From Nannocystaceae bacterium (GTDB lineage: Bacteria; Myxococcota_A; Polyangia; Nannocystales; Nannocystaceae): a stretch of 39,825 nt of DNA. The notes under the pieces were generated by a model. The model made no database searches and was not told the origin of the DNA. It was given only the letters and a program-made list of their open reading frames with translations. Every line of letters starts with the position of its first letter. Position 1 is the first letter of the stretch. The DNA is taken from assembly GCA_041389865.1 (NCBI GenBank), contig JAWKRA010000044.1, forward strand, positions 1 through 39,825, written 5' to 3'. Below are positions 1,369 through 33,819 of this stretch, in pieces. A program made the translations under genes and the position numbers.

Positions 1369-1423
1369 CCTGTCCGGCCGTTCAGCCTGGGCGAGCCGCC
1401 GCGACCAGTCCACGATCGGCCGC

Positions 1424-2128
1424 ATGAACGATCGGCACGTCCTCCTCACCGGCGGCTCGGGGGGCCTCGGCATCGCCGTCACCCGGGCGCTCCTCGCCCG
1501 CGGCGCCCACCTGACCCTCACCGTGCGCGACGACGTCCACGCGCAGCGACTGACCGCGTTCCTCGACGACCTTGATGATGAGGCGCGGGCGCGCGTCCGC
1601 ACCGCGCCCGCCGACCTCGCGGACGAAGCCAGCGTGCGCGGGGTCATCGACGCCATGCCGCGCGTCGACTGCCTGATCCACCTCGTCGGCGGCTTCACCA
1701 TGGGCCCGCTCGACGAGACGTCGCTCGAGGCGCTCCGCGAGCAGATCGACCTGAACCTCGTGACTACCTTCCTGGTCTGCAAGCACGCGCTGCGACGGAT
1801 GAAGGAGCGGGGCCACGGCCGCATCGTCACCGTCGGCTCGCGCGCGGCGGTCGAGCCCGGCGCCCAGCTCTCCGCCTACGCCGCGACCAAGGCCGGCGTC
1901 CTCGCGCTCACCCGCGTCATCGCCGACGAGACCCGCGACACCGACATCACCGCCAACGCGGTGCTCCCCAGCATCATCGACACCGCCGCCAACCGCAAGG
2001 CGATGGGCGAGTCGCAGGCCGAGCGCTGGGTAACCCCCGAGTCGCTGGCCGAGGTCATCCTGTTCCTCGCCTCGGAGGCCGCCCGCGACGTCCGCGGCGC
2101 GCTGCTCCCGGTCTACGGCAAGGTCTAG
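1424..2128 (+). CDS. SDR family NAD(P)-dependent oxidoreductase (short-chain dehydrogenase/reductase)
   Basis: The N-terminus carries the Rossmann motif TGGSGGLG and the protein has the catalytic YAATK (YxxxK) motif. It is 234 aa, which is typical of classical SDRs. Confidence 0.85.
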   Translation: MNDRHVLLTGGSGGLGIAVTRALLARGAHLTLTVRDDVHAQRLTAFLDDLDDEARARVRTAPADLADEASVRGVIDAMPRVDCLIHLVGGFTMGPLDETSLEALREQIDLNLVTTFLVCKHALRRMKERGHGRIVTVGSRAAVEPGAQLSAYAATKAGVLALTRVIADETRDTDITANAVLPSIIDTAANRKAMGESQAERWVTPESLAEVILFLASEAARDVRGALLPVYGKV

Positions 2129-2242
2129 TCGCCGCCGACGAAGCTCAACACGAGCGCAGCGGACCTCGCAGTCAGGCTCGCAGGGATGCAGCCGACCCGC
2201 CGCGCTCGACGGCGCCCCGAGCCGCGACGCCTTCGTCGAGTC

Positions 2243-4360
2243 TTACGCGTCGCCTTCGAGCGCGTAGACGCGGCCCTCCCCCGATCGCATGCCAGCGAAC
2301 ACGCGCGCGCCATCGCTGCGCAGCACCACGCTGGTGATGCTCTCCCCGAGCTCGACCCTCGCCAGCGCGCCCCCGCTCGAGAGCTGCGCGACGACGACCG
2401 CATGGTCCTCGGTCCAGGCGACGCGATCGGCCGCGCTTGCGACCGACAGGTGCATCGCCCCGAAGGGTAGATCGAGCAGCTTCGTCGGCGCGCCGTCGGG
2501 GTCGACGCGCGCGAGCCAGCTGCGCGTCTCGTGGTCCGAGCTCCTCCAGTCGAGGTCATCGGGGTCGACGTAGATGCGCACGTCGTCAAACCCCAGACGC
2601 TTCAGTCGCTTGGTGACGCGCGCGATCGCTACGCCCTCGTGAACGCCGACGATCGAGAAGTCGTCGCCGAGCTTCCACGTTCGCAGCAGCGCGCCGGTCC
2701 GCGGATCGAGGAGCGCGAGCTCGCCGCTCTCTCGCCCGGAGTGGGTCAAGAGGCGCCCGTCGGCGAGCGGGTGGAGCGAGTCAAACGACGCGGACCACTG
2801 CCACTTGGGGGCCGGCTGCGACGCGTGCGTCCACAGCAGCTCGCCCGCCGCCGACCACCCCTGGAGGTGCGTGACGCTGTCGTTCTCGCCGCTCCACGGG
2901 GCGTCCACGCCGCGGACGCTGAAGTAGCCGATCGAGACCACGACGTCGCCGACGATCGCGAGCTTCGAGATCTGGCAGGTCTTCGTCGCGCCCGACGACA
3001 CGCGCTCGCCGTCGAGGCTCCAGCGCTGGATCGTGCCGCCGCCGAACGGGCCGACGAGCAGCGAGTCACCGGCGAAGACGAGCGCGCCGACCTGGTGCTT
3101 GCGCGCCGACGCATCCTGGTGGTGGAGCTCGCGGATCAGCGCGCCCGTGGCCGCATCCCACAGGCAGACGCACGGGGGCCGCTCGTGGTGCGTGGTCGCG
3201 AGGAGCGCGCCGTCGCTCGAGAACGCGAACGGCTTGTGATTGGGCTCAGGGTAGCGATCCAGGCAGGCGCGCGGCGCCCCCGTGTCGAAGTCCCACAGGC
3301 GGATGACCGCGTCGCTGTCGGCCGTCGCCACGAGCGCGTCCCCGGGCGCCGCCGTGGCCTCCGACGCGCTGCCGAGGTGGCGCGGCGCCGGCTGCCAGCC
3401 CGCGGTCGGCATCACCCACACCGCTCCCTTCGCCCCGCCGACGAGGACGCGATCGCCGTGGAGGCACAGCGCCGTCACGCCGCCCGCCGGCGCCTTGCAG
3501 CGGAGCACGACGGCGCTCAGATCGCTCGTCATCCCGCGGAGCTCGGAGTGTGTCCCAAAGAACACGCGCGTGGCGTCGCGCGCCATGGCCTGAACCCCCC
3601 ACGCGAAGTCGTCGAGGCGGCCGAGCTCGGCTCGCGCGGGGAAGTCCCACACGATGACGTCGTCGGCCGCGGTCACGAGCCGGCGCGCGTCGAGGAACTG
3701 CATCGCCTGCGGCGCCTGCCCGGCGTGGCCCTTGCCGCTCGTGTTCCGCCCGCCGATGAACAAGCGCCCGAGGCCCAGGTGGCGGACCCAGGACGTGCCC
3801 GTATAGACAGGTTCGACGGCCTTCATGCGCTTGAGGTCCCAGACCAGCACGCGGTGCTCGATCGAGGCCGAGACCGCGTAGCGACCGCAGGGGCTGACGG
3901 TGACGGCCTGGATCACCTCGCCGTGGCCCTCGAGCGCGCCGCGGAGCCGACCGTTGGCCATCGACCACACGCGGACGATCCCGTCGTCGCACGCGCTGAT
4001 GACGTACTCGTCGGTGAGCGCGACCCGGCGCACGTAGCCCTCGTGTCCGCGGAGGACGAACATCGGCTCGACCCCCGCGCGCAGGCTCCACACCCGCGCG
4101 GTCCTGTCGTCGCCAGCCGAGGCCATGAACGCGCCGTGGACCGCGAGGTGATTGACGGGGCCGCTGTGGCCCTCGAGCTCGCGCACGAGCGCTCCCGAGT
4201 CGATCTCCCACAGGAGCACCCGTCCGCCCTCGTCGCTCGAGAGCGCGTGCTCGCCGTCGGGGTGGACGACGATCGCGTGGACGTGCGCCGAGTGGAGCGC
4301 CAGGCGCCGCCACTGGGGCGTCGGCGCGGCGGGGTTTCGATCGACTCGCACGAGCTCCAT
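2243..4360 (-). CDS. WD40-repeat protein, probably a double beta-propeller (705 aa)
   Basis: There are repeated G-H...(V/I)WD/L units, for example 'VLLWEIDSGALVRELEGHSGPVNHL', 'DDRTARVWSL', 'DDGIVRVWSM' and 'HRVLVWDL'. The C-terminal half has further 'IRLWDF' and 'CVCLWDA' units. The ATG at 4358-4360 opens the frame. Confidence 0.8.
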   Translation of the reverse strand: MELVRVDRNPAAPTPQWRRLALHSAHVHAIVVHPDGEHALSSDEGGRVLLWEIDSGALVRELEGHSGPVNHLAVHGAFMASAGDDRTARVWSLRAGVEPMFVLRGHEGYVRRVALTDEYVISACDDGIVRVWSMANGRLRGALEGHGEVIQAVTVSPCGRYAVSASIEHRVLVWDLKRMKAVEPVYTGTSWVRHLGLGRLFIGGRNTSGKGHAGQAPQAMQFLDARRLVTAADDVIVWDFPARAELGRLDDFAWGVQAMARDATRVFFGTHSELRGMTSDLSAVVLRCKAPAGGVTALCLHGDRVLVGGAKGAVWVMPTAGWQPAPRHLGSASEATAAPGDALVATADSDAVIRLWDFDTGAPRACLDRYPEPNHKPFAFSSDGALLATTHHERPPCVCLWDAATGALIRELHHQDASARKHQVGALVFAGDSLLVGPFGGGTIQRWSLDGERVSSGATKTCQISKLAIVGDVVVSIGYFSVRGVDAPWSGENDSVTHLQGWSAAGELLWTHASQPAPKWQWSASFDSLHPLADGRLLTHSGRESGELALLDPRTGALLRTWKLGDDFSIVGVHEGVAIARVTKRLKRLGFDDVRIYVDPDDLDWRSSDHETRSWLARVDPDGAPTKLLDLPFGAMHLSVASAADRVAWTEDHAVVVAQLSSGGALARVELGESITSVVLRSDGARVFAGMRSGEGRVYALEGDA

Positions 4361-4496: not shown

Positions 4497-5108
4497 CTAC
4501 AGGTCGCAGGCTATCGACAGCGAGAAGGGCGCCGCGCCGATCGGGTCACCTGTCGTTGAGTTCAGGTCGTACTTAAGGAAATCCGGGCAGTCGAGGTCGA
4601 AGTCGACGCGGGCCGCGGACAGCTCGCGCACCGTCAGCGCGCAGGTCGCCTCGCTCGCTTCATCGTGCGGGAACCCGTAGGAGAAGTTCGACGAGCCGTC
4701 GGGATCGGTCTTGAAGAAGAACCCGAAGACCGGCGCGTCGGCGTCGTCGCGACCGAACGTGTAGTCGCCCGGATCGAGCCAGCGGACCCCGAAGCTGAAG
4801 GCGTAGTCGCCGACGTTGAACAAGATCGAGTTCTGCTGCTCGGCCGCGATCGCGCTGCAGAAGCCGATCGGCCCGCTGTCGTCGGTGCTCGAGAACGTGC
4901 CGCTCGCGGGGAGGTCTGGCTCGCCGCCGATCTCGAGGCTGAAGGTCCCGTCGATCGACTCGACATCCTGGGTCGGGTCGTCGAGCGTCGGGTCGCCGGG
5001 CCCAGGCCCAGGCCCCGGGATGATGCAGGCCGTCTGCGTGGTGACGGCGAGCATCGCTGCCGCCGCGGTGAAGCGGGCGCGCGCGCCCCTGCGGTGTGTA
5101 CCTGTCAT
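4497..5108 (-). CDS. small secreted lipoprotein, hypothetical (203 aa)
   Basis: An internal ATG at 5106-5108 is preceded by a GGAG-containing stretch (cgagaggagcgaag). It gives the N-terminus MTGTHRRGARARFTAAAAMLAVTTQTAC, which has an n-region, an h-region and a Cys. A PGPGPGPGDP linker follows. The ORF-track start at 5510 would add 134 Arg/Pro-rich residues and looks spurious. Confidence 0.55.
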   Translation of the reverse strand: MTGTHRRGARARFTAAAAMLAVTTQTACIIPGPGPGPGDPTLDDPTQDVESIDGTFSLEIGGEPDLPASGTFSSTDDSGPIGFCSAIAAEQQNSILFNVGDYAFSFGVRWLDPGDYTFGRDDADAPVFGFFFKTDPDGSSNFSYGFPHDEASEATCALTVRELSAARVDFDLDCPDFLKYDLNSTTGDPIGAAPFSLSIACDL

Positions 5109-10763: not shown

Positions 10764-13463
10764 GTGCCGCGAAGCGATCGCCTCCTGCTCGTCGCGTTCT
10801 TCCTCTCGGGCGCCGCGGCCCTCGGCTACGAGCTCCTGTGGACGCGGCTCCTCGCGCTCGCGCTCGGCCACGAGCTGCTCGGCGTGCTCTCCAGCGTCGC
10901 CGGCTTCTTCGCTGGGGTGAGCCTCGGCGCGGTGACGGTGCGACGGTGGCTCGCCGGTCGTGAGCCGACGCGGGTGTTCGTCGCCCTCGAGGTCGTCGCG
11001 GCCGCCTACGCGATCGCCTCGCCGTGGCTGCTCGAGCTGCTGGTCGTCCGCTTGCCGGGGTTTTTTCCAGGGGACGCGCCGCCGGGGCCGCTCGCGTCGG
11101 TGGTGATCGCCACCGTAACGCTGCTGCCAGGGACGCTGTGCCTGGGCGGGACCTTGCCGGCGCTCGTCGACGCGCGGACGCGGGCGCTGGGCGATGACGC
11201 CGGCGGCGCGCGGGGCCTCGCGCGGCTGTACGCCGCAAACACCTTCGGCGCGACGGTAGGTGTCTTGGGGACGGTACACCTTTGGCTGCCGGCGGTCGGC
11301 TTCGGCGTCGGGGCGCTCGGGCTCGCCGCGCTCGGGCTCGTCGCGGCCGGGCTCGCGCTCGCGTGGCGCCGCGGGTCGCCGCGCGTCGACGCGCCCGCGC
11401 CCGCGTCGGCGTCCGTCGACCTCTCGGGCGATCCCGACGCCGAGCTGCTCGCCGAGCCGTGGCTCCTCTACGCCGTCACCTTTGCGACCGGCCTCGCCGG
11501 CGTCGGCCTCGAGGTGGTCTCGGTGCAGATCCTCGGCCAGAACGTCGAGGGCACCGTCTACACGTTCGCCGGGATCCTCGCCGTCTACCTCGTCGGGGCC
11601 GGGATCGGGGCGGCGATCTACCAGCGCCTCGCCGCGCGGGCGATCGCGGGCCGACCGGCGACCGTGCTCGCCGGGCTGCTGCTCGCGCTCGCGGCCAGCA
11701 CCGTGCTCTCGGCCTTCGCGCTCGCCCGCAGCCCCGACATGCTCCTAGGGGCAGGTTCATCGCCGCGCTACGCCGAGGCGCTCGCGCGCGAGCTGCTGGC
11801 GGCCGCGGCCGCGCTGCTCGTGCCGACGATCCTCATGGGCGCGCTGTTCTCCCACGTGGTCGGCCTCGTCAGCGGTCTCGGCCAGCGCGCGCTCGGCCGG
11901 GCCTACGCGCTCAACACCCTGGGCGGGGCGCTCGCGCCGTTCGTGTTCGGGCTGTGGGCGGTGCCGACGCTCGGCTACACCGACGGCTTCTACGCGGTCA
12001 CCTACCTCTACCTGCTGGTGTTCGCCGGGTTCGCGTGGTTTCGCCGATTCCGGCCGTGGGTGATCATCGCCGGGGTCTTGGGGGTCGTCGCGCTCACGGC
12101 CGCAGGGCCGCGGGCCGGCGCGCTGTCGCTGGTCAAGGACGCCGAGGGCTGGGCGGTGCTCGAGCGCCGCGAGACCCTCCAAGGAGTGGTGACGGTCGCC
12201 GAGTACGAAGGACCGCGACCCGAGGGCGCGCCGCCGCTGCGACGGCTGCAGGTCAATCAACACTTCAAGATGGGCGGCGTCTACAGCTTCGGTGAGCGGC
12301 GCATGGGCCAGCTTGCGACCCTCCTCGCGCCCCCCGACGCGCGCGCGCTGTTCCTCGGGGTCGGCACGGGCGCGACCATGGGGGCCGCGCTCGAGGTCAC
12401 GCCGGGGGCGATTCGCGCGGCGACCGGGGTCGAGCTGGTCCCGGCCGTGCTCGAGCTGCTGCCGTACTTCGCGGCGACGAGCGGCGACCTCGCGCACGAG
12501 CGGCGCGCGACGCTGGTCGCCGCCGACGCCCGCCGCTACCTCGCGGCCGGGGACGCGCCGCTCGAGCTCATCGTCGCCGATCTCTTTCATCCGGCGCGTG
12601 ACGGGGCCGCGTCGCTCTACGCCCGCGAGCACTTCGCCCGGGCCCGGGCGCGGCTCTCGGATGACGGCGTCTTCGTCCAGTGGCTGCCGCTCTACCAGCT
12701 CAGCCGCGACGATCTGGCGGCGATCGTGCGCGCGTTCCTCGAGGTCTTCCCCGAGCACGCGCACGCGTTCCTCGGCTTCTACAACGTCGAGACCCCGCCG
12801 CTCGCGCTGGTCGGCTCGCGCGTCCCGGTGGTCGTCGATCCGGCGCGGGTCCAGAGCTTCGGAGCTCGTCCGTCGGCGACGATCGTCGAGGCCCGCGACC
12901 TCCTCGCCGCCCACCTCCTCGACGGCGAGGGGCTCGCGCGCTTCGTCGGTGACGGCCCGGTCCACCACGATCTCGATCCCCGGGTGCTGTTCTCGGCGCC
13001 GCGGGTCGCCTACGAAGATCCGCCCGACCTCGGCGCCCGCACGCTCGCGGCGCTGCTCGAGGTCCGCGCTCCGTACCCGCCCTCGATGGTCCCTGGCGAC
13101 GATCCGGCGCTGCGGGCCGCGACCGAGCGCTACGCCGAGGCGGTCGACGCGTACCTGCGCGGCGAATTGCTCGGGCACGCGGACGGCCCGACGGCGCCCG
13201 TGAGCGCCGCCCGACTCGAGCGGTACCTGGCGGCCTACGAGCGCGAGCCGGGCTTCCCGCCCGCCCGCGGCGCCCTGTTTCGCGCGGCCAAGAACCACCC
13301 CGAGCGCGCCGCGGCGATCTACGAGCGAATGCTCGAGCGCACCCCCGACGAGCCGCGCGTCTACCGGGCCTACGCCGAGCACCTCCGCCAACGAGGCGAC
13401 ACGCCCGGGCTCGACCGCCTGCTCGAGCGGGCCCGGGCGCGACGCGACGCGGCGACGCTGTGA
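10764..13463 (+). CDS. fused polytopic membrane domain plus spermidine-synthase-like (polyamine aminopropyltransferase fold) domain plus C-terminal TPR-like helical repeats (about 899 aa)
   Basis: The N-terminal '[19 protein letters not shown]' block and several hydrophobic helices are typical of the membrane-embedded spermidine synthase-like family. The middle has a '[16 protein letters not shown]' Rossmann-like motif and 'LIVADLFHP...DGVFVQW'. The C-terminus has repeated helical hairpins ('[12 protein letters not shown]...', '[26 protein letters not shown]'). The start is a GTG at 10764 with no clear Shine-Dalgarno-like motif, so the 5' end is uncertain. Confidence 0.7.
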
Positions 13464-13547
13464 AGCCGATCCCGCGGCGGGCAAACGCACATCCCCGCCC
13501 GACGGCGAGCCGTCCGCGAGGCCAGGCCCCGGCGGTACCATGGGGGC

Positions 13548-14864
13548 ATGCGCGGTCTCGCTGATAGGAGCCCTGAACAGCTTTGTGCGCGACTCCAGGC
13601 CCTCGGGCAGCGACGGGCGTACGCGGTGTTCGACGCCGAGGCCGGGCGCGTCAAGGTCTCGCACCCCGAGCTCGCCGAGCTCGCCAGCTTCCTCGAGGGC
13701 GACCGCCGCGACTACGATCGTCACGAGGGCGTGTTCCTCGAGGTCGGCCGTGAGACCGGCGCGCTGATGGCCGCGTTCGTCCACAACACCCGCCGCGGTC
13801 AGGCCCAGGGCGGCCTGCGCTTTTGGCCATATGAGTCGACCGGCGACCTGCTCCGCGACGGCCTCCGGCTGGCCCGCGGCATGACCCGCAAGAACGCGCT
13901 CGCGGGCCTTTGGTGGGGCGGCGGCAAGGGGATCATCGCCCGGCCGCCGGGCGATCAGCACCGTGATCCCGAGTATCGCGCGCGCCTGTTTCGCGAGTAC
14001 GGCCGCTTCACCAGCTCGCTGCGCGGCTGCTACTACACCGCCGAGGACGTCGGCACCCGACCCGTCGACATCGAGGGCGTGTTCGCTACCACGCGCTTCT
14101 GCACCTGCACGCCGCCGGCCGTCGGCGGCGCGGGCAACCCGTCTCCGCACACCGCCCGCGGGGTCGTGTGCGCGATGGAGGGGGCGCTCGCCCACCTCGG
14201 CCTCGGGACCCTGGCTGGAAAGTCGATCGTGATGCAGGGCACCGGCAACGTCGGCGCCTCGATGATCGGCGAGCTCCTGGCCCGCGACGTCGCGTCGATC
14301 GTCGCCAGCGATATCGCGGAGGAGCGCGCCGCCGAGGTCCGCGCCCAGTTCGCGGGGAGGCCCGTTGAGGTCGTCGTCACCGCGCCCGGCGACGCATCGA
14401 TCCTCGCGCGTCCCTGCGACATCCTCGCGCCCAACGCCCTCGGCGGCGTGTTGAACCCGGAGACCATCCCGACGATCGCGGCGCGGATCGTCTGCGGCGC
14501 GGCCAACAACCAGCTCCTCGATGACGACCGCGACGGCGCGGCCCTGCGCGCGCGCGGCATCGTCTACGTGCCCGACTTCCTCGCCAACCGCATGGGCATC
14601 GTCTACTGCGCCAACGAACAGTACGGGCAGGTCCGCGACGATCCGGCGATCCACCGTCACTTCGGGCGCGACTGGGAGAACTCGGTCTACCGGGTCGCGA
14701 TCCGGGCGCTGACCCTCGCCGACGCTGAGGACATCACGACCGCGGCGGCGGCCAACCACCTCGCTGACGCGCTTGCGAGCGAGCTGCACCCGCTGTGGGG
14801 TCACCGCGGCCAGGCCATCATCGACGGCCTCATCGCCGACGGCTGGGAGACCGGCGCCTCCTGA
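13548..14864 (+). CDS. Glu/Leu/Phe/Val dehydrogenase family amino-acid dehydrogenase (most like Leu/Phe/Val dehydrogenases)
   Basis: The '[25 protein letters not shown]' stretch matches the family's catalytic Lys/Gly-rich signature. '[13 protein letters not shown]' gives the NAD(P)-binding GxGxxG. Alignment by eye to the Bacillus LeuDH N-terminal region (…GGTRMWTY…[22 protein letters not shown]…) is strong. The start is the ATG at 13548. Confidence 0.85.
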   Translation: [438 protein letters not shown]

Positions 14865-15012
14865 CCCACAGCTCCGCGGAGGACCGTGTATCCCTCGAGA
14901 CACCCCGCGGGTCGTCCGAGTTTCAAGCGCTTCGGTTTCACGGCCGAGTCGTGAAGATCCTCGCCGGCCAGGGGGAGGCGAGCACGCGGCGGCCTGTGGC
15001 ATCGTCGCCCGT

Positions 15013-17142
15013 ATGCGTCGCATCTCCGCGGTCCCTCCGGCCCTCTGTGTCGCCCTCGCGCTCGCCTGCACCGCCCAAAGCGGCCCAGCGCCCAAGCCCA
15101 AGCCCGAGGCCGCGGGCGAAGAGCCGACCAAGCCCAACGAGCCTGTCTCTAAGACCATGCGGCTCGACGCCGCGGCGATCGCCGCCGAGGTCCAGAGCAC
15201 CCTCGACGCGTCCGCCGACCCCTGCGACAACTTCTACAAGTACGCGTGCGGCGGCTGGCTCACGTCGACGACGCGCCCGCCCGACAAGCCCCGCTACGGG
15301 CGCGGCTTCGGGGTCGTCGACGAGAAGAACAAGGCGATCCTCCGCGAGATCCTCGAGGCCGCCCAGACGAGCGAGGATCCCAAGGAGAAGCAGCTCGGCG
15401 CCTTCTATCACGCGTGCATGGACGAGGCGGCGATCAACGCCGCGGGCGTCACCCCGATCGCCGAGCTGGCCGGCAAGATCGAGAAGGCCAAGGACCTCGG
15501 CGACATCCTCGAGCGCGTCGGCTCAATGCACCGGTCGGTGACAGCCGGCGGCGGCGGCCTGTTTCGCGTCTACGTCGACGCCGACGACAAGAACCCCGAC
15601 GTCTACATCGCCAAGGCCACGCAGGGCGGCACCGGCCTGCCAGACCGCGACTTCTACCTCGAGGACTCGGAGAAGATGAGGTCGATCCGCGCCCAGTACG
15701 AGGCCCACATCGCCCGCATGCTCGGCTTCCTCGGCGACGCCGAGGCCGACGCCAAGCAGCGCGCGACGGCGATCCTCGCCTTCGAGACCGAGCTCGCGCG
15801 CCTGGCACGGCCGCGCGCCGAGATGCGTGACCCGGAGAAGACCTACAACAAGGTGGGCGTCACGGGCTTCGTCGCGCTCGGCGAGGGGCTGCCGTGGGAT
15901 CGCTACTTCGGGGGCCTTGGCTACGGGCCCGACAAGATCGGCGAGCACCTCAGCGTCTCGGTCCCCGAGTTCTTCCAAGGGCTGCCGGCGCTGCTCGAGC
16001 GCACCGACCTCGACACGCTCAAGCACTACCTGCGCTGGCACGTGATCCACGCGACCGCCGAGCACCTCAGCGCCGAGATCGACGCCGCCGACTTCGAGAT
16101 GCAGAAGCTCCTGACCGGCGCGGAGCGGCAGTCCGATCGCTGGGAGCGGTGCGTCGACTGGGCCAACCACAGCGTCCCCGAGCTCATCGGTCCGGCGTTC
16201 GTCGAGCGCCAGTTCGCGGGCGACAGCAAGCAGATCGCGGTGACGATGATCAGCGCGATCGAGCAGGCCTTCGAAGCCAGCCTCCCGGAGCTCTCGTGGA
16301 TGGACGAGGTCACCCGCGGGCGCGCGATCACCAAGGCCAAGGCGATCACCAACAAGATCGGCTACCCCGATCGCTGGCGGGACTACAGCGGGCTCGAGTT
16401 CACCGGCGACGATCACATGCGCAACATCTTCAACGCGCTGCGCTTCAACTTCGAGTACGACGCCAATCGGGTCGGCGGCCCCGTCGATCGCGACGAGTGG
16501 CACATGCCGACCGCCTACGTCAACGCGTACTACAGCGCCTCGGTCAACGAGATCGTGTTCCCGGCCGGGATCCTGCAGCCGCCGTACTTCAGCCGCGACT
16601 TCCCGATGGCGATGAACTTCGGCGGCATCGGCATGGTGATGGGCCACGAGATCACGCACGGCTTCGACGACGGCGGGCGCAAGTACGACGAGAAGGGCGT
16701 GCTGCGCCCGTGGTGGGAGGACGAGGCCGCGCAGAAGTTCGAGGCGCAGGCGCAGTGCGTCGACGATCTCTACAGCGGCATCGAGGTGCTCCCGGGCGTC
16801 AAGCTCAACGGCAAGCTGACGCTCGGCGAGAACATCGCCGACCTCGGCGGCATCAAGGAGGCCTACAACGCCTACAAGCGCTGGGCCGCGCAGAACGGCG
16901 GCGACGCTGCGCCGCACGTCGCCGGGCTGACCAACGACCAGCTGCTCTTCGTCGGCTTCGCCCAGGGCTGGTGCACGCTGCAGAGCGACGAGTCGACGCT
17001 CCTGCGCGCCAAGACCGACTCCCACTCGCCGCCCGAGCAGCGCGTCAACGTGCCGCTCTCCAACTTCCCGAGCTTCTGGGAGGCGTTCTCGTGCGCCGAG
17101 GGGACGCCGATGCACCCGGCCCAGACCTGCCAAGTCTGGTGA
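15013..17142 (+). CDS. M13 family zinc metalloendopeptidase (neprilysin/PepO-like), lipoprotein
   Basis: The N-terminus MRRISAVPPALCVALALACTAQSG has a lipobox. 'CDNFYKYACGGWL' is the M13 N-terminal signature. 'HEITHGFDD' gives HExxH, 'GENIADLGG' gives the third zinc-ligand Glu motif, and the protein ends in the CQVW motif. The ATG at 15013 is chosen; the ORF-track start at 14773 adds an 80-aa Arg/Pro-rich leader. Confidence 0.9.
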   Translation: MRRISAVPPALCVALALACTAQSGPAPKPKPEAAGEEPTKPNEPVSKTMRLDAAAIAAEVQSTLDASADPCDNFYKYACGGWLTSTTRPPDKPRYGRGFGVVDEKNKAILREILEAAQTSEDPKEKQLGAFYHACMDEAAINAAGVTPIAELAGKIEKAKDLGDILERVGSMHRSVTAGGGGLFRVYVDADDKNPDVYIAKATQGGTGLPDRDFYLEDSEKMRSIRAQYEAHIARMLGFLGDAEADAKQRATAILAFETELARLARPRAEMRDPEKTYNKVGVTGFVALGEGLPWDRYFGGLGYGPDKIGEHLSVSVPEFFQGLPALLERTDLDTLKHYLRWHVIHATAEHLSAEIDAADFEMQKLLTGAERQSDRWERCVDWANHSVPELIGPAFVERQFAGDSKQIAVTMISAIEQAFEASLPELSWMDEVTRGRAITKAKAITNKIGYPDRWRDYSGLEFTGDDHMRNIFNALRFNFEYDANRVGGPVDRDEWHMPTAYVNAYYSASVNEIVFPAGILQPPYFSRDFPMAMNFGGIGMVMGHEITHGFDDGGRKYDEKGVLRPWWEDEAAQKFEAQAQCVDDLYSGIEVLPGVKLNGKLTLGENIADLGGIKEAYNAYKRWAAQNGGDAAPHVAGLTNDQLLFVGFAQGWCTLQSDESTLLRAKTDSHSPPEQRVNVPLSNFPSFWEAFSCAEGTPMHPAQTCQVW

Positions 17143-17149
17143 GCCGGCG

Positions 17150-17185
17150 CGCGTGAGACCTGTCGAACGAGGCAGGTCTCACGCG
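17150..17185. terminator. perfect 13-bp stem / 10-nt loop hairpin between convergent genes (M13 peptidase and Cys-rich lipoprotein); putative bidirectional terminator
   Basis: cgcgtgagacctg-tcgaacgagg-caggtctcacgcg was read directly. It starts 8 nt after the M13 stop. There is no strong U-tract, which is common in high-GC genomes. Confidence 0.5.
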
Positions 17186-17231
17186 ACCCATCCGCCGTGT
17201 GTCGAGCGATCGAGCGCGACGGGCTCGAGCC

Positions 17232-18122
17232 TTAGCAGCCCTCGCAGGCGCACAGCGACTGGCCGTTGGGGATCACCGTGGGCGGGTTGCCGACCTGCTG
17301 GCAGGTGACGTTGGCGTTGTTGAGGCCGCAGTGCACGTCGAGGCCCTGACAGACGTTCGTGCCGCCCTGACAGCTGACGTCGCAGACCCCGTTGTTGCAG
17401 TTGACAGTCGCGTTCTTGCACGCGTTGTTGCCCGAGCAGGTGACCTCGCAGAGCTGGCCGTTGGCGCAGTTGATCGTCGCGTCGGAGCACGCGCCCGAGC
17501 CGCTGCAGTCGACCACGCACTCCTTGTTGGCCGGGCAGTCGACGACCTTGCCGCTGCAGCTCTGACAGTCGATGAGGCAGTCCGCGCCTTGACAGCTCGT
17601 GCACCCCAGCGGGCACTCGTTGAGATCGGGCTCCTTCGTCATCCCGCAGACGTCCATCTGCTCGGTGTCGCTGCTGGCGTCGGTGGTGGCGTCGGTCTCG
17701 GTCGTGTCCGTGGTCGGATCGGTCGTGTCCGTGGTCGGATCGGTCGGGTCGGTGGTCTCGGTCGTCGGGTCGGTGGTCTCCGTCGTCGGATCGGTCGGGT
17801 CGGTGGTCTCCGTCGTCGGATCGGTCGGGTCGGTGGTCTCCGTCGTCGGATCGGTCGGATCGGTGGTGGGGTCGGTCGGATCCGTCGTTGGGTCGGTCGT
17901 CGTCACCGCGTCGGTGGTGCCGGTCTCGCTGTCGGTGCCCGTAGCGTTCGTCGGCCCCGCGGTCGTCACCTGGGAGGTGCTCGAGGAAGACGTCGACGAC
18001 TCGGTCCCGTCGCCCGTCGACGTCTGCGACTCGTTGCCCGACCCCTCGATCACGTCGCCGCACCCTGCGAGCGCGAGGAGGAGCGCGCCGCCGCGCGCGA
18101 AGGAGCGCATCTTAAGCATCAT
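17232..18122 (-). CDS. secreted lipoprotein with a Thr/Asp/Pro-rich tandem-repeat linker and a C-terminal Cys-rich domain (about 40 Cys)
   Basis: The signal MMLKMRSFARGGALLLALAGCGD has an LAGC lipobox. TDPTDPTTE/TTDPTTE repeats follow. The C-terminal 'CPLGCTSCQGADCLIDCQSCSGKVVDCPANKECVVDCSGSGACS...' consists of repeated CxxxC units. GC3 is high. Confidence 0.65.
   Translation of the reverse strand: MMLKMRSFARGGALLLALAGCGDVIEGSGNESQTSTGDGTESSTSSSSTSQVTTAGPTNATGTDSETGTTDAVTTTDPTTDPTDPTTDPTDPTTETTDPTDPTTETTDPTDPTTETTDPTTETTDPTDPTTDTTDPTTDTTETDATTDASSDTEQMDVCGMTKEPDLNECPLGCTSCQGADCLIDCQSCSGKVVDCPANKECVVDCSGSGACSDATINCANGQLCEVTCSGNNACKNATVNCNNGVCDVSCQGGTNVCQGLDVHCGLNNANVTCQQVGNPPTVIPNGQSLCACEGC
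17690..17900. repeat. 27-nt (and variant 18/21-nt) tandem repeats inside CDS 17232..18122; they encode TDPTDPTTE units
   Basis: ggtctccgtcgtcggatcggtcgggtc is repeated three times perfectly, with degenerate copies on either side. Confidence 0.75.
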
Positions 18123-18169
18123 GCGAGCATTCTACCTCGGGCGGGCGCGGGCGCCTGCGGAGAGCGCTC

Positions 18170-18979
18170 TCAGCTCGAGGCCGAGGTGTACCCGCGCAGG
18201 GCCACGCGCCACGAGAGGCGCGCGATCAAGAGCAGCGCCGCCGCGGTGCCGAGGGCGGCGAGGAGCGTCCCAAAGGTCAGGCGCCCGAGCACGGCCTGGG
18301 CCGGGTAGGTGGTGAGGATTGCGAGCGGCACCACGAAGGTGAAGACCGCCTTGAGCAGCCCGCTGAAGACGTCGATCGGCCAGCGCGAGAAGTCGAGCGT
18401 CGACTCGATCAACATGGTGAGGTTTTGCAGCTGCTGGGCCGAGAAGCTCAGGCACAGGCACAGGACGCCGAGGGCGTAGAGCGCCAGGACCCCGGCGAGG
18501 CCGGAGAGCGCGACCGCGGCCAGATCGATGAGGCGCGGGGTCGCGGCCAGCTGCCAAAGGCTCACGGCGACGAGCCCGGCGCCGAACAGCACCTCGACGA
18601 ACCGCCACGGGTTGAACTCGGTCGTCAGGCACAGGACCAGGGAGTCGGCCGGGCGCAGGAGGACGTGGTCGAGGGTGCCGCGGCGGATGTGGTGCATCGA
18701 CTCGACGAGCGCGGGCTGGACCAAGGCGCCGAACACCCCCGAGATCATCATGAAGAAGCCGGTCAGGACCATGAGCTGCCACGGACCCCAGCCGACGACG
18801 TCGCCGCGGTGCTCCACCGCGATCACCAGCGGGACCACGCCGATCAGGCTCCAGAGCACCGAGAGCAGCCCCTCGCTCCAGAAGCCGACGCGGTACTGCA
18901 TGGCCGCCATGCCGCTGATCCGCAGCTGGGTGGCGAACAGGCGCGCGGCCTGGACGAGCGGCGACGGCCCTGGGCTCAT
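18170..18979 (-). CDS. ABC-2 family transporter permease (second permease of a COG4586/COG4587/COG3694-type system)
   Basis: There are six or more hydrophobic helices ('MAAMQYRVGFWSEGLLSVLWSLIGVVPLVIAV...'). The ATG at 18977-18979 overlaps the TGA of the upstream permease as ATGA, indicating translational coupling. The 508-aa ORF-track version has a 239-residue Arg-rich spurious N-terminus. Confidence 0.75.
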   Translation of the reverse strand: MSPGPSPLVQAARLFATQLRISGMAAMQYRVGFWSEGLLSVLWSLIGVVPLVIAVEHRGDVVGWGPWQLMVLTGFFMMISGVFGALVQPALVESMHHIRRGTLDHVLLRPADSLVLCLTTEFNPWRFVEVLFGAGLVAVSLWQLAATPRLIDLAAVALSGLAGVLALYALGVLCLCLSFSAQQLQNLTMLIESTLDFSRWPIDVFSGLLKAVFTFVVPLAILTTYPAQAVLGRLTFGTLLAALGTAAALLLIARLSWRVALRGYTSASS

Positions 18980-19782
18980 GCGCCCACCGCCGAGAAGTGC
19001 CGCGCGCCGCGGCGCCAGGCGAGGCCCGCGGTTACGGAGAGTCCCAAGAGCCAGGTCCACTGGATCAGGAAGCCGCGGGCGGCGGCGGCGGCGTCGAGGC
19101 GCCCGAGCAAGAGCTCGACCGGGAACCCGAGCCCGGCGTGGAACGGGAGGAAGCGGACGAGCTCGGCGAGGCCGCCCGGGAACAGGCTGGTGGGCACCGC
19201 GTAGCCGGAGAGCGCGATGAAGAGCGCGAGCCACAGCTCGAAGAGCGCGGACGAGCGCGTGAACCAAAACGCCAGGCAGCCGATCGTCAGCTGGACGACG
19301 AAATTGAGCAGGAAGCCGCCGATGATCGCTGGGATTGCGAGCGCGAGCGCGCCGCCGCGCGCGAGCTCGAGCCCGGCGTCGCCGAGCGCGAGCACCAGGA
19401 CGATCGCGGCCACCGGCGCGGCGATCAGCGCGCGGACGGGCAGGGCGGCGAGGTTGGTCATCAGGTGGTGGAGGATCGGGTGCACCGGGCGCAGCAGCAG
19501 CGTCGAGAGCTCGCCGGTCACCACCTGGCGCTCGAGGTCCCACACCACCCAGCTCGCGGTGAGCTGACGGACCAGGAACGCGGCGACGAAGTAGGCGACG
19601 AAGCCGGGGCGATCGTAGTCGCCGATCGGCCCGGCGCGGGCGAGCCCCGCCCACAGCGCCAGGGCGATCAGCGGGAACGAGCTGTTCAGGATCCACACGA
19701 ACAGCGCGCCGCGGTAGGCGACGGCCTCCGCGAGCCCGAGCCGCCAGATCGCCGCGAAGTGCCGGAGCCGCCTGCCGATCAC
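18976..19782 (-). CDS. ABC-2 family transporter permease (first permease)
   Basis: The protein is hydrophobic ('RRLRHFAAIWRLGLAEAVAYRGALFVWILNSSFPLIALALWAGL...'). The GTG at 19780-19782 overlaps the ATPase stop as GTGA. The upstream 170 residues of the ORF-track version are Arg-rich shadow. Confidence 0.75.
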   Translation of the reverse strand: MIGRRLRHFAAIWRLGLAEAVAYRGALFVWILNSSFPLIALALWAGLARAGPIGDYDRPGFVAYFVAAFLVRQLTASWVVWDLERQVVTGELSTLLLRPVHPILHHLMTNLAALPVRALIAAPVAAIVLVLALGDAGLELARGGALALAIPAIIGGFLLNFVVQLTIGCLAFWFTRSSALFELWLALFIALSGYAVPTSLFPGGLAELVRFLPFHAGLGFPVELLLGRLDAAAAARGFLIQWTWLLGLSVTAGLAWRRGARHFSAVGA

Positions 19783-28194: not shown

Positions 28195-28387
28195 GCCGTG
28201 AAGAGTGGCACGCCACCTGCATGGAACGACGCTATCGTGACAGGCCGGTCCTGAGATTGACTTGTGAAGCCGTTGTAGATCCCATCATGCAGATTTCGTC
28301 CTGTGCGTGATCAACGGAGTTTCGTCGCGCAGGAACGAACCTTGATTCCAGGCGCAAAACTGCTGTTCCTCGAGCCCGAGCGGCGTC

Positions 28388-29161
28388 CTACTCCGGCACC
28401 GCTTGACCGATGCACATGCGGCAGCTCACGCCACCGCTGGCGGTGATCGAAGGCTGCAAAACGCCGTGCTCCGCGAGCTGTGCTTCGACCGCGTCGAGCT
28501 GGCTCACGTCGAGCTGCGGCACCAGGCGTCGGGGATCGTCGCCGCGGCGCCGAGCGAGGGCCGCGAGCCCGTAGACGGTGGGGTAGAAGGCCGTGACCCG
28601 CAGGGTGCGGCTGTGCCGGCAGATCAGGGTCGGCGTCGGGGCGCGCTCCGGGGGCGGCGTCGCCGGATCGGTGAGCGCCTGGGCGTACTCCGGGATCTTG
28701 CAGCTGGCCGCCTGGCGGACGAAGACGCGGTGGTCGAGGCCGTCGGGGAGCGTCCCGGCGGGCAGCTCGTCGCTGGCGACGTGGGCTAGAAGCGCAGCCA
28801 GTAGTAGTCCGCGATCTCCTCCCAGAGCGGCTCGATGCGCGGATCGCTCTGGCGGCATGGGCCCGGGTAGTCGGAGAACGGCGCGGCGAAGGTGTTAGGG
28901 TTGCGGGCGGTGGCCGGGTGGGCGTCGCTGAAGTCGTCGACGAAGCCGGTCCCACAGCAGCGCGCAGGTGGGTGATCCGCGCGCACAGGGCCGAACGCTC
29001 CGGCGCAGGATTTTGTCCATGTTGCGGCGGATCAGCACCCGGTAGAAGGCGACCCGCCGGACCCCGGACGGGCTCTCGCCGAGCGCGGCCTGGAAGGTGG
29101 CGACGTCGGTCTCGCCGGAGAGCAGGCGGCGCGCTTCGTGGAAGAACGCCGCGAGGCTCAC
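28388..29161 (-). pseudogene. DUF2063-family partner of the DUF692/MNIO enzyme (MbnC/HvfC/BufC-like), as it reads here interrupted by two +1 frameshifts
   Basis: The GTG at 29159-29161 overlaps the DUF692 stop as GTGA. Frame A reads 'VSLAAFFHEARRLLSGETDVATFQAALGESPSGVRRVAFYRVLIRRNMDKILRR...' (DUF2063-like N-terminus, compare 'RFAVYRNNV'). High-GC3 coding then continues in the +1 frame ('TGFVDDFSDAHPATARNPNTFAAPFSDYPGP...LWEEIADYYWLRF') and again in the next +1 frame ('AHVASDELPAGTLPDGLDHRVFVRQAASCKIPEYAQAL...CRMCIGQAVPE*'). The frame switches fall near short homopolymer runs (tggg at about 28950; gccc at about 28785). These could be real, giving a pseudogene, or assembly indels. Confidence 0.5.
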
Positions 29162-30132: not shown

Positions 30133-30750
30133 TCAGCAGGTCGGGGCCGCGTCGATGCACGCCGAGTAGTCGGCGCCGCCGTCGCCACACTCGCCCATGA
30201 CGCACTCGAGCAGGCCCATGTTGACCTCGGCCTGGTTGTCGCAGACCTCGGTGATCTCGTTGCACTTCGACTCGCAGTCGGCGACGCCGTCCGGGTCGAG
30301 GAGCTCGCACTCGCCCATCTTGCTGCACCCGTCGAGGCAGACCTGGATGGTCTCCATGAGCAGGGCGCCGTCGGTGTCGGTGCTCGGGCAGCCCGTGGTC
30401 GGGCAGGCGGTCGTCGGGCAGCCCGTGGTCGGGCAGGCGGTCGTCGGGCAGGCGGTCGTCGGACAGCCAGTCGTCGGACAGCCGGTCGTCGGACAGCCGG
30501 CGGTCGGGCACGCTGCGGTTGGGCAGCCAGCGGTCGGACATCCGGCGGTCGGGCAGCCCGTGGTCGGGCAGCCGGCGGTGGTGCCTGTCTCGGTGGTCGG
30601 ACAGCCGGCGGTCGGGCAGCCAGCGCTGGCGGTGTCGGTCGTCTCGGTGTCGGTGCCGCTCTCGGTCGTGTTCTTGTCGTCGCCGCAGCCAGCGACGACC
30701 GTCGCGGTGAGAGCCGCCGCCGCGAGTATCGAATCCAGGTTTTTGAGCAT
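30133..30750 (-). CDS. Cys-repeat lipoprotein immediately upstream of DUF692; candidate Sec-exported RiPP-type precursor/substrate (205 aa)
   Basis: The ATG at 30748-30750 has GAGG 9 nt upstream. The signal MLKNLDSILAAAALTATVVAGCGDD has a VAGC lipobox. It is followed by about 16 tandem (A/T)GCPT(T/A) units ('AGCPTAGCPTTETGTTAGCPTTGCPTAGCPTAGCPTAACPTAGCPTTGCPTTGCPTTACPTTACPTTGCPTTACPTTGCPS'). A 75-aa Cys-rich tail follows ('CLDGCSKMGECELLDPDGVADCESKCNEITEVCDNQ...'). The ORF-track version (398 aa) has an Arg-rich spurious N-terminus. Confidence 0.75.
   Translation of the reverse strand: MLKNLDSILAAAALTATVVAGCGDDKNTTESGTDTETTDTASAGCPTAGCPTTETGTTAGCPTTGCPTAGCPTAGCPTAACPTAGCPTTGCPTTGCPTTACPTTACPTTGCPTTACPTTGCPSTDTDGALLMETIQVCLDGCSKMGECELLDPDGVADCESKCNEITEVCDNQAEVNMGLLECVMGECGDGGADYSACIDAAPTC
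30385..30620. repeat. 15-nt tandem DNA repeats (ggtcgggcagSCSgt) encoding the GCPT(T/A) pentapeptide array
   Basis: Direct reading shows gggcagcccgtggtcgggcaggcggtcgtcgggcagcccgtggtcgggcaggcggtcgtc... with a 15-nt period over about 235 nt. Confidence 0.75.
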
Positions 30751-30914: not shown

Positions 30915-31979
30915 TCAGTCGAGCTCGACCTCGGCGCACGGCGTCAGCGCGTCCGCGAACGCGTTGAGGCCGGCTTCGTCGAGTCGCTCCAGCAAGTACG
31001 CGCGCGCTCGACACAGATCGCGAGCGCGTGGCTCTCCTTCGGCCAGCGACGCCGCGAGGTCGAAGATGGCGATCGGCACGCCGCGATCCGGGCACTGCGG
31101 AGGCGCGCTCGCGTGCGCGCCCGGGAGCGCCGGCGCGTCGCCGCAGCGATGGGTGATGGCGGGGTCCTTGAGGTTGAGGTCGTGTCGCCGATAGTCCTCG
31201 ATCGGCGCGCGATCGCGGAGCACGGTCTCGATCGTGTAGAGCCCGCTGGCGTCCGTGGCCCGGTGCACAGGACCCTTGGCGTGCAGCGTCTCGGCCTCGG
31301 CCAGCCGCGGCGTGTGGCACGGCGCGCACTGATTGATGCCGCGAAACCGCCGTTCGAACGCCTCACGCTGGGTGGGCTTCATGTTCTTGACCTGCTCGGT
31401 GGTCGCCAGGAACTCGAGCATCCGACGCGTGACCTCGGCCTGCTGCTCGGGATCGCCGCGATCCCACTCAAAGCCGCGCAGGCGGGCGTTGGGCTGGGCC
31501 TGCTCGGGTCGCAGCACGCGGAAGCGCTCGCGGCCGTCGGGACCAAACACGGTGCCGCGCACGTCGGCGATCTGGCGGCGCGGGCCGTGGCCGAGGAACT
31601 CGATGCGATCGGCGTGGGTCCCCTGCGGGTAGCGCAGGGTGTGGCGTTTCTGGTCAGGGAGATACTCGGTCGTGATCACGCCGCCTTCGGGGATCTTGAT
31701 CCAGATCTCGATCTGCTCGAGGACGGGGCTCGTCGACGGCAGCCGTGCGGGCGGGATCATTCGAATGTAGCCGGCGTCGCGCCAGAACGACTCGGGATCC
31801 TCCACAGAGATCTCGACGATGCCTCGGGCGGTGCCCGAGAGATCCGCGCGCTCCGCCTCGGGCGCGGGTGGAGCTTCGGGCGCGCGCGCGGTGATCCACC
31901 AGACGGCGACGCCGAGGCCGAGCGCCACGATCGCGACGAACAGCCAGCGGGTGCGACTCGTGCGGGAGGCGTCCGCCAT
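30915..31979 (-). CDS. membrane-anchored protein with a single CxxCH motif (possible c-type haem site), hypothetical, 354 aa
   Basis: The ATG is at 31977-31979. The N-terminal TM helix is 'WLFVAIVALGLGVAVWWI'. 'INQCAPCHTPRL' is a CxxCH motif, and further Cys are at 'HRCGD' and 'PQCPD'. The gene is co-directional with, and 52 bp downstream of, the P460-like gene. Confidence 0.5.
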   Translation of the reverse strand: MADASRTSRTRWLFVAIVALGLGVAVWWITARAPEAPPAPEAERADLSGTARGIVEISVEDPESFWRDAGYIRMIPPARLPSTSPVLEQIEIWIKIPEGGVITTEYLPDQKRHTLRYPQGTHADRIEFLGHGPRRQIADVRGTVFGPDGRERFRVLRPEQAQPNARLRGFEWDRGDPEQQAEVTRRMLEFLATTEQVKNMKPTQREAFERRFRGINQCAPCHTPRLAEAETLHAKGPVHRATDASGLYTIETVLRDRAPIEDYRRHDLNLKDPAITHRCGDAPALPGAHASAPPQCPDRGVPIAIFDLAASLAEGEPRARDLCRARAYLLERLDEAGLNAFADALTPCAEVELD

Positions 31980-32031: not shown

Positions 32032-32634
32032 TCAGGGGACCTGATCGGCGGCGTCGATGCCTCTCGCCCAGTCCGACGGCGCGGCCGGCATGTGGCAGCT
32101 GATGCAGAAATCGGCGGCGGGCGCGGTCCCCTTGACCGGCGTGGTGCCGTCCTCGTAGACGCGCGCCCACCACCAGTCGCCGGTGTCGGGCGCGTAGCCG
32201 GGCGGGCCCTTGTGCATCACCGTCCAGCCGCCAGGCATGGTGGCCTCGGCGTCGGCCCAGTGGCGCTTGATGAGCGTCGTGCCGACCGGGAACGTGATCG
32301 GCTGGTAGTCCATGGGATCGATCATCTTGTAGGTGGCGAGCACGTCCGGCGGCACCCAGATGTCGACGACCATCGCCATGTCGCCGTGCTGGCTGGCGAG
32401 CGGCGCGTTGTTGGCCTTGGTGAATTTTCCCTGATCGAAGTTCATCACGTCATCGAGGACCGCGTCCTCATCAACTTCGGCGGCCGTGGTCTCGGTCTCC
32501 GAGCCCGTCTCCGAGCCTGACTCGGTGGCGTCGGTGGTGCCGGCGGTCGTGTCATCGGTGCCCGAGGTGGTGTCGCCGCAGGCCGCGAGCGTTAGGATGA
32601 GGAGTGAGCGGTGGAGAACGTGCGCGTGTTGCAT
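32032..32634 (-). CDS. cytochrome P460 / cytochrome c'-beta family-like haem lipoprotein (201 aa)
   Basis: The ATG at 32632-32634 gives MQHAHVLHRSLLILTLAACGD with an LAAC lipobox. 'FPVGTTLIKRHW', 'GYAPDTGDWWWARVYEDG' and the C-terminal 'FCISCHMP' (CxxCH near the C-terminus) resemble the cytochrome P460 layout ('GTVTVKE…', 'GNWAFY…', 'C-A-A-CH'). The family call is from memory. Confidence 0.55.
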   Translation of the reverse strand: MQHAHVLHRSLLILTLAACGDTTSGTDDTTAGTTDATESGSETGSETETTAAEVDEDAVLDDVMNFDQGKFTKANNAPLASQHGDMAMVVDIWVPPDVLATYKMIDPMDYQPITFPVGTTLIKRHWADAEATMPGGWTVMHKGPPGYAPDTGDWWWARVYEDGTTPVKGTAPAADFCISCHMPAAPSDWARGIDAADQVP

Positions 32635-32724
32635 GCCGTGTCGATCCCTTGTGGTCGGTGGATGTTCCCACGAACGACGCGGCGGTCGTGATCGTTTCGC
32701 GCGGCGGAGCGCGCCTGACAGATC

Positions 32725-33195
32725 GTGGCGATCGAGCGTACACTCGCGCGCGTGGCTCAGCTCGGCAGCATCTTCGACGACGACGCGGCCGATGACGGCC
32801 CGCGCGGCCGCGATCTGCGGACCGAGGTGACGATTCCGGCCTGGTCGATGGGACACCCCGACGGCTACGCGGTGGCCGTGCCGATCGAGCTGCCGATCGA
32901 CGACGAGACCGCCCACCGCACCCCGTCTCCGCATGATGACGGTGAGCACATCACGCTGCGGCTCCCCGAGAGCTTCCCGGACGGAGGGACGCTGCGGCTG
33001 CGCGGGCAGGGCGAGCGCGGGCCGACCGGGCGCGTCGGCGATCTGCTGGTGACCGTGCGCATCGACGAGACCGACGCGATCGCGCGGGTGTTGCCGAGCT
33101 CGCTCGCCCAGTCCAGCAGCCCCAACAAGACCGTGATCATCGGCGTGACCGTCGCGCTCGCGGCCCTGGCGGCCGCGGTCTACGCGGCGCTTTGA
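32725..33195 (+). CDS. DnaJ C-terminal-domain-like protein with a C-terminal TM helix (no J domain), 156 aa
   Basis: 'DLRTEVTIPAWSMGHPDGYAVAVPIEL' and 'ITLRLPESFPDGGTLRLRGQGERGPTGRVGDLLVTVRID' follow the two CTD motifs of DnaJ/CbpA ('…G..LRL.GKG…GDLYV.V.V'). The C-terminal 'VIIGVTVALAALAAAVYAAL' is hydrophobic. The start is a GTG. Confidence 0.4.
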   Translation: MAIERTLARVAQLGSIFDDDAADDGPRGRDLRTEVTIPAWSMGHPDGYAVAVPIELPIDDETAHRTPSPHDDGEHITLRLPESFPDGGTLRLRGQGERGPTGRVGDLLVTVRIDETDAIARVLPSSLAQSSSPNKTVIIGVTVALAALAAAVYAAL

Positions 33196-33270: not shown

Positions 33271-33819
33271 CTACTCGGGCGCCAACGGGCACTCGAGGGC
33301 CTCGAGCGGCTCACATCCCACAAGCCAGCTCGTCGTGTCGAGGCAGCTCGAGTCGTAGTCCGCGAGGCACTTCACAAATTGCTCGGCCGGCGCGAGGGTG
33401 CACAGGCTCGGCGGGTTGGCCCACTCGCCGACCCCGTCGCCCGCGCCGTAGGCCTGCCGAAGCACGCGGCCATCACCGAGGAGCAGGAGGTCGACGTTGC
33501 TCGACGAGCGATCGAAGTCGGTGACGGTCTGCAGGAGGCCCGCGTCCCCGGCGGCGAGCGCCCCGAGCACGCAGCGGGCGGTCTCGTCGTAGCTGAATTC
33601 GGCGTCCGCGGACGGCGACTCCGCGACCGGGAGCGCGTCGCACGGCACCGCAGCCTCGCAGTGGAGCAGCAGCGTCGGCGTGAACGGCGGGTCCTCGGCC
33701 TCAGCCTGGTCGTCGACGCCGTTGTCCTCGATCGAGCTGTCGAGGAGCGCCCCGCCGGGCGTGTCACAGCCCACGGTGAGGAGCGAGCCGACCAGGAGCA
33801 GCGCGGACAAGCGAAGCAT
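33271..33819 (-). CDS. lipoprotein, hypothetical (182 aa)
   Basis: The signal MLRLSALLLVGSLLTVGCDT has an LTVGC lipobox. The mature part has 8 Cys. GC3 is high. Confidence 0.55.
   Translation of the reverse strand: MLRLSALLLVGSLLTVGCDTPGGALLDSSIEDNGVDDQAEAEDPPFTPTLLLHCEAAVPCDALPVAESPSADAEFSYDETARCVLGALAAGDAGLLQTVTDFDRSSSNVDLLLLGDGRVLRQAYGAGDGVGEWANPPSLCTLAPAEQFVKCLADYDSSCLDTTSWLVGCEPLEALECPLAPE

Follow-up and report, generated by a model that had tools for sequence, protein, structure and literature searches.

Frame changes in an MNIO partner gene of a Nannocystaceae metagenome-assembled contig probably stem from a local assembly artefact

The minus strand of a 39,825-bp contig of a Nannocystaceae metagenome-assembled genome (MAG) at NCBI (R3A51_ locus tags; the whole contig is called the window hereafter) carries, beside an MNIO RiPP maturase gene and the gene of a cysteine-rich exported precursor, a stretch that reads as the partner gene of the maturase and changes its reading frame along the way. 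The question raised by this locus is whether the frame changes belong to the gene of the organism or to its assembled sequence. The original prediction had left the choice open among a genuine pseudogene, named first, indels introduced by the assembly and, as the least likely case, a programmed frameshift. The evidence favours assembly indels.

The GTG start codon of the partner gene at 29161 overlaps the stop codon of the MNIO gene (GTGA), and frame 0 as written ends at a stop after 88 codons. The NCBI annotation divides the locus into 2 "hypothetical proteins," R3A51_10770 (28786..28986, 66 aa) and R3A51_10765 (28388..28858, 156 aa). Three-frame translation and GC3 phase tracks revealed that high-GC3, protein-like coding runs on the minus strand down to 28388 despite the frame changes, in agreement with the uninterrupted coding that had been predicted. 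The frame sites were located by base-level alignment with the intact allele (described below) and exact peptide mapping to it. The frame path is 0>2>1>0 over 3 sites, each with a net loss of 1 nt (Table 1); because these losses total −3, the first and last frames of the gene coincide. Of the 2 shift sites predicted, those near 28950 and 28785 are real, and a third at 29003–28994 had been missed. The predicted +1 direction is reversed: compared with the intact allele, each site is one base short, and restoration of the frame needs a −1 shift. The proposed homopolymer context holds in part for the site at 28957–28944, where some of the changes are homopolymer length changes (GGG>G, GG>GGG, and T>TT). 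At 28788, the lost C of TTCTCAGCC is not in a homopolymer, and its loss creates an in-frame TAG at 28788–28786; the change at 29003–28994 is a complex replacement.

The lesions of the partner gene go beyond the 3 frame sites: (i) the family-invariant residue W71 is destroyed at site (ii); (ii) QYSC is changed to QAASC (+3 nt), TEDP to TDP (−3 nt), and Y182 to C; and (iii) the 3′ end of the gene is rewritten, with the stop codon lost and approximately 15 codons gained. The gene is split over 3 frames, and no continuous ORF of approximately 240–260 aa is found in the window. A correction of one base per site, as considered in the original prediction, would give no wild-type product because conserved residues are also replaced.

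Table 1. Positions of the partner gene, its frame segments, the error-like zone and the neighbouring genes in the window.
Feature	Position	Strand	Frame	Basis or remark
MNIO partner gene remnant (DUF2063/HvfC-BufC-like; 243 aa when intact)	28388..29161	-		Translation, alignment, peptide mapping
Intact residues 2-53	29158-29003		0	Exact peptide mapping
Frame site (i)	28994..29003	-	0 to 2	Complex replacement: intact CGCGAGGGGTGCCCGG -> CGCCGGAGCGTTCGG, net -1 nt
Intact residues 58-68	28991-28959		2	Exact peptide mapping
Frame site (ii)	28944..28957	-	2 to 1	Cluster -2, +1, -1, +1, net -1 nt
Intact residues 75-125	28941-28789		1	Exact peptide mapping
Frame site (iii)	28786..28789	-	1 to 0	One base lost from TTCTCAGCC (TTCTTAGCC in L013)
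Intact residues 127-236	28786-28457		0	Exact peptide mapping
Error-like zone, 879 bp	28125..29003	.		22 substitutions + 12 insertion + 18 deletion events vs GCA_020431275.1
Choice-of-anchor-L lipoprotein gene	27019..28222	-		400 aa in sister MAG and ENA contig
MNIO (DUF692) RiPP maturase, 284 aa	29158..30012	-		Pfam MbnB_TglH_ChrH, E = 7e-95
CefA-type precursor lipoprotein, 205 aa	30133..30750	-		NCBIfam NF038108, lipobox VVAGC, Cys-rich C-terminal domain

A search with the frame-corrected conceptual protein retrieved a 243-aa protein (P0001) on a 1,184-bp Logan contig of SRR15882951 (L001). Exact-sequence look-ups added a 9,857-bp contig of GCA_020431275.1 ("Myxococcales bacterium," KC636_ tags; L002), in which the whole neighbourhood is present, and 2 ENA contigs with the same 243-aa protein, one of which (ERZ27309339; L013) covers the entire problem region, the other being partial. 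Four other assemblies, of sister strains approximately 99.6–99.9% identical and sampled separately from the window MAG, thus have one intact 243-aa ORF at the position of the partner gene. The alleles of L001, L002, and L013 are all 732 nt long and lie 2 to 5 substitutions apart, mostly at third codon positions and with no indels; these assemblies are not mutual copies, and they agree against the window at every complex patch. The broken fragments (P0002 and P0032) cluster with no other sequence among approximately 15 billion proteins and occur on the window contig only. A scan of JGI metagenomes with a pattern accepting both alleles of site (iii) gave no match, so JGI provided no further independent evidence, and a literature search for SRR15882951 found no papers.

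The intact allele also sets the polarity of the change. All 17 homologues are single ORFs of 237–261 aa, and in the 18-sequence family alignment W71 and Y152 (in an FVRQY motif) are invariant. Frame correction brings neither residue back in the window version, and the other alleles also keep the aromatic residue at position 182. As judged from this alignment, the window allele is the derived one, the other alleles keeping the family-invariant residues. In a comparison with orthologous loci, as recommended in the original prediction, the partner match is unbroken in 5 related myxobacterial loci, with an MNIO gene directly upstream in at least 3 of the 5. A pattern scan of genome contigs retrieved only relatives at 32–40% identity and returned neither the R3A51 MAG nor its sister; the pattern included FVRQY, which is absent from the window allele.

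These orthologues bear directly on programmed ribosomal frameshifting or recoding, by which one protein would be made through 3 programmed −1 shifts. The persistence of high-GC3 coding across the frame changes fits such a mechanism, against which stand the single frame of all orthologues and the 17 homologues, the absence from the gene of any slippery heptamer of the form X XXY YYZ, the replacement of W71 and Y152 and the loss of the stop codon even after frame correction, and the extension of the same kind of lesions into noncoding DNA. Programmed frameshifting, rightly ranked last at the outset, is rejected.

The lesions fall within a sharply bounded zone (Table 1), which spans the partner gene and the spacer and ends at 28125, approximately 30 codons into the next gene. 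The differences in this zone recur against the Logan and ENA contigs as well as against GCA_020431275.1. The zone contains 52 events (5.9%) compared with 1.7 expected, a 30-fold excess (Poisson P = 6e-57). By contrast, 38 events (approximately 0.2%) were counted outside the zone over approximately 19.3 kb aligned to L002 and to 2 further KC636 contigs (L005 and L012) together, and the 5 indel events among them are all intergenic. The spectrum differs as well: indels make up 30 of the 52 events in the zone compared with 5 of the 38 outside (indel:substitution ratios of 30:22 and 5:33, respectively; Fisher P = 2e-5). About half of the zone indels are length changes of homopolymers or dinucleotides, many form −1/+1 pairs within 10 nt, and some are multiples of three (+3, −3, +6, and +3). 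Between the indel clusters, stretches of up to approximately 165 bp are identical, third codon positions included.

Outside the zone, comparators were available for approximately 22 kb of the contig, and this sequence is clean. Over approximately 9 kb, L002 differs from the window by isolated substitutions, one 2-nt intergenic indel, and 2 CG/GC swaps in a repeat; L005 (window 17867–23096) by substitutions and 3 intergenic indels (losses of 9 nt and 2 nt and a gain of 1 nt); and L012 (window 12612–17722) by substitutions and one 2-nt intergenic indel. A further Logan contig (L003; 3 substitutions, no indels) and 2 further ENA contigs (L004, with 6 substitutions and no indels; L014, window 1318–3942, with 8 substitutions and no gaps) add approximately 5.6 kb, partly overlapping L002. 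The suspicion that other genes in the contig might contain similar errors was not borne out over these 22 kb, and GC3 phase tracks revealed no other within-gene frame changes in the window. Two candidates were dismissed: a same-strand frame change at 18976, the only further one, marks the border between 2 real ABC2_membrane_6 genes, and a GC3 phase candidate at 30346–30466 is a codon-composition effect of the CefA repeat.

The comparison assemblies have peculiarities of their own. In L012 (GCA_020431275.1 contig JAGQIN010001514.1), a 35-N scaffold gap at approximately 1299–1333 splits a Glu/Leu/Phe/Val dehydrogenase gene into "partial" proteins of 95 and 305 aa; the window is continuous at 13910–13946, and its dehydrogenase there is intact (438 aa). 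With an N gap in the sister MAG and an error zone in the window, each assembly has its own local defect. In L014 (ENA WANG18-1_SAMN08389213 scaffold_12367), nt 1–159 do not align to the window at approximately 3942–4360, and the WD40 protein has 557 aa in L014 and 705 aa in the window, a mismatch that may reflect a different 5′ end or a scaffold chimera.

We consider it highly probable that the frameshifts represent a local low-quality consensus of one metagenome-assembled contig rather than a trait of the gene in the organism. The position of the differences, their density, and their spectrum were observed directly, as were the intact allele in 4 assemblies and its family and fold; the homopolymer and dinucleotide changes and the −1/+1 pairs are, we infer, the signature of a poorly supported consensus. 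A noisy, indel-rich consensus of 879 bp would overlie an allele otherwise almost as in the sister strains, and the real gene would be a single ORF of 243 codons, translationally coupled to the upstream MNIO gene through the GTGA overlap. The zone also ignores gene boundaries, affecting coding sequence, spacer, and the start of the next gene, in support of this explanation. Three points count against it. First, contig-wide long-read noise would not usually leave its errors within one 0.9-kb stretch of an otherwise clean 40-kb contig, so a local cause is needed; this technical cause could be, for example, a gap fill or a long-read stretch that was left unpolished or had low coverage. Second, the comparison assemblies represent sister strains from other samples, which leaves a real strain-specific lesion some probability. 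Third, the indels in multiples of three and the −3 sum could hint at real sequence, although they are also compatible with chance.

The same zone accounts for an oddity of the adjacent choice-of-anchor-L lipoprotein gene, the TTG-only start of 27019..28194, which the original prediction had suggested as a similar error. The zone reaches the start of this gene and puts its original ATG (28222–28220) out of frame, and the PGAP annotation accordingly gives a 391-aa ORF from the TTG at 28194. Read from the TTG, the N-terminus MQGGACNFFTGLVFVCLVPLGCGDSELGTGEGTNNA has become MFVCLVPLGCGDSFGFLGTGEWASNNA in the window, with part of the signal peptide lost. The intact N-terminus (MQGGACNFF...) is present in L002 and, independently, in the ENA contig L013.

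Were the window to be read literally, inactivation would extend to both the partner of the MNIO and the signal peptide of the lipoprotein encoded next to it, and the RiPP system would be dead in this lineage. This would be a genuine strain-specific pseudogene, with a segment of approximately 0.9 kb wrecked by, for example, localised error-prone repair or hypermutation. In its favour, the window strain is unlike all comparison assemblies at some SNPs (for instance, alleles at 27007 and 26996 are common to the comparison assemblies and absent from the window), which makes the window strain a separate lineage; conserved residues are damaged, as in decay; and some of the indels are multiples of three. 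Several observations speak against it: (i) neutral decay cannot exceed the flanking divergence of approximately 0.2%, and the zone is at 5.9%, that is, 30 times the lesion density of the flanks and mostly indels; (ii) indels outnumber substitutions, unlike the substitution-only natural variation at this locus; (iii) the proteins of the neighbouring MNIO and precursor genes are identical to those of the sister MAG, and this identity gives no sign of relaxed selection on the system; and (iv) the broken allele is present in no other assembly, and the JGI scan was empty. In addition, we know of no localised mutational process of such a kind in bacteria, which also counts against it. A genuine pseudogene, although listed first in the original prediction, is therefore improbable. 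The bare claim that the zone is real DNA, a sharply bounded burst of approximately 50 mutations (small indels for the most part) in a genome that elsewhere shares 99.8% identity with its sisters, has in our estimate a slim chance of being true. Were it true, a so far unknown localised hypermutation or error-prone repair would have silenced the partner of the CefA-MNIO system as well as the export signal of the lipoprotein beside it, and hypermutation so sharply localised and so rich in indels would be unusual.

The zone also has sharp boundaries like those of a recombination tract, and the window could in principle be correct, with the zone imported from a divergent relative and another allele, recombinant or paralogous, in the other assemblies. 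In a functional allele from such a relative, mainly scattered synonymous substitutions would be expected, with the frame and the invariant residues kept; the zone instead has identical stretches of up to approximately 165 bp between indel clusters. Moreover, 3 mutually differing assemblies all stand against the window at every complex patch, and no second copy of the zone exists within the window. We regard such an import as very unlikely. A DGR-like or gene-conversion donor was also considered and rejected: the zone occurs only once in the window, and its changes include indels besides substitutions.

The label DUF2063, given in the original prediction to the gene as written, applies to the intact allele (P0001/P0024), which passes the Pfam DUF2063 (PF09836) gathering score (31.6 bits against 27.2); the 3 partner fragments of the window had no DUF2063 match in Pfam. 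The match of the intact partner to the NCBIfam HvfC equivalog NF050145 is partial (47.1 bits, below the cut-off of 142), and by these profile scores the protein belongs to a related subfamily and is not an HvfC equivalog. One homologue bears the NCBI name "HvfC/BufC family peptide modification chaperone." The AlphaFold model of the intact partner, built from the 18-sequence alignment (pLDDT 92, pTM 0.85), predicts a helical N-domain and a beta/alpha C-domain, with a C-terminal RRE-like domain and an overall fold like that of NGO1945 and TglI. The top PDB matches in Foldseek were TglI (8hi7_A/8hci) and NGO1945 (3dee), with a probability of 1.00 and TM-scores of 0.56–0.66; MbnC was weaker. At the sequence level, the RRE-like domain is indicated by a weak NGO1945_C match in a homologue (P0003; E = 0.056), and the family alignment, used as a profile against the sequences in the PDB, had no match. 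With that search empty and Foldseek positive, the relationship is visible at the fold level only.

The neighbours agree with this assignment. The MNIO protein scores 301.5 bits against the BufB equivalog, just below the cut-off of 310, and is also near HvfB. It is annotated from the ATG at 30012; the version with a long GTG start had no exact match. A 15-nt tandem repeat at 30378–30621 gives the precursor its 16 G-C-P-T-[T/A] pentads, and the protein scores 35.3 bits against NF038108 ("Cys-every-fifth RiPP peptide CefA"), above the cut-off of 30; a literature search for the term "Cys-every-fifth" found no paper. The MNIO and precursor proteins are identical in both NCBI MAGs, and in one of the 5 related myxobacterial loci, that of Paraliomyxa miuraensis (L006, approximately 4695–5096), a similar GCPTA-repeat lipoprotein is encoded upstream of the MNIO gene. 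The CefA-type lipoprotein is likely the substrate of the MNIO.

Further genes lie around the cluster. On the same strand, just upstream of the CefA, MNIO, and partner genes, are those of a cytochrome P460-domain protein (32032–32949) and of a 354-aa protein with no family match (30915–31979). A 902-aa protein encoded at 23271–25979 on the minus strand resembles the major vault protein (Pfam MVP_shoulder, 36.5 bits against a gathering score of 25, with a weak Vault_3 repeat match); the 2 NCBI MAGs have the same sequence for it. For the product of 33271–33819, an exact look-up found no entry.

The value of the result lies mainly in quality control of the GenBank record of this MAG, which lists the spurious R3A51_10765 and R3A51_10770 and a truncated anchor-L protein in place of one HvfC/BufC-type partner and one 400-aa lipoprotein. 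Mining of the window contig would wrongly score the CefA-MNIO cluster as partnerless or decaying; the species-level evidence says that the cluster is intact and under purifying selection.

The intact gene is an ordinary BufC/HvfC/TglI-like partner, that is, a member of a known family in a known type of RiPP cluster. BufC and HvfC are DUF2063-RRE partners of MNIO RiPP maturases (PMC11626156, PMC12452194, PMC11252979); such proteins go under the name of "PME-type 1" partners, and the precursors with a signal peptide include a "CxxxxC" group (PMC12452194). The conversion of precursor cysteines into copper-binding 5-thiooxazoles in Caulobacter needs both BufB (MNIO) and BufC (DUF2063), a joint requirement for cysteine modification shown only for BufB1/BufC1 of that genus (PMC11626156). 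By analogy, the partner described here would present to the MNIO the cysteine-rich lipoprotein precursor of the CefA type, whose cysteines the enzyme would then modify oxidatively.

Comparison with known systems, both technical and biological, revealed the following. The zone is similar to the indel-rich residual consensus errors of metagenome assemblies in that (i) indels outnumber substitutions, (ii) homopolymers and dinucleotides change in length, (iii) frame shifts are locally compensated, and (iv) genes break regardless of function. By contrast, the window defect is a single 0.9-kb stretch, and the other approximately 22 kb compared is clean. Like BufC and HvfC, the intact partner has a DUF2063 domain, is approximately 245 aa long (within the narrow size range of the family), and is encoded by a gene that overlaps the MNIO stop codon. 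Unlike them, it belongs to a small myxobacterial subfamily with 30–41% identity between members, and its cluster includes a lipoprotein precursor of the CefA type and lacks a DoxX gene; in addition, the window copy is broken. TglI of the TglHI holoenzyme (8hi7/8hci), NGO1945 (3dee), and MbnC (7fc0) are the best structural matches of the partner model, although their sequence identity with the partner is only 12–15%.
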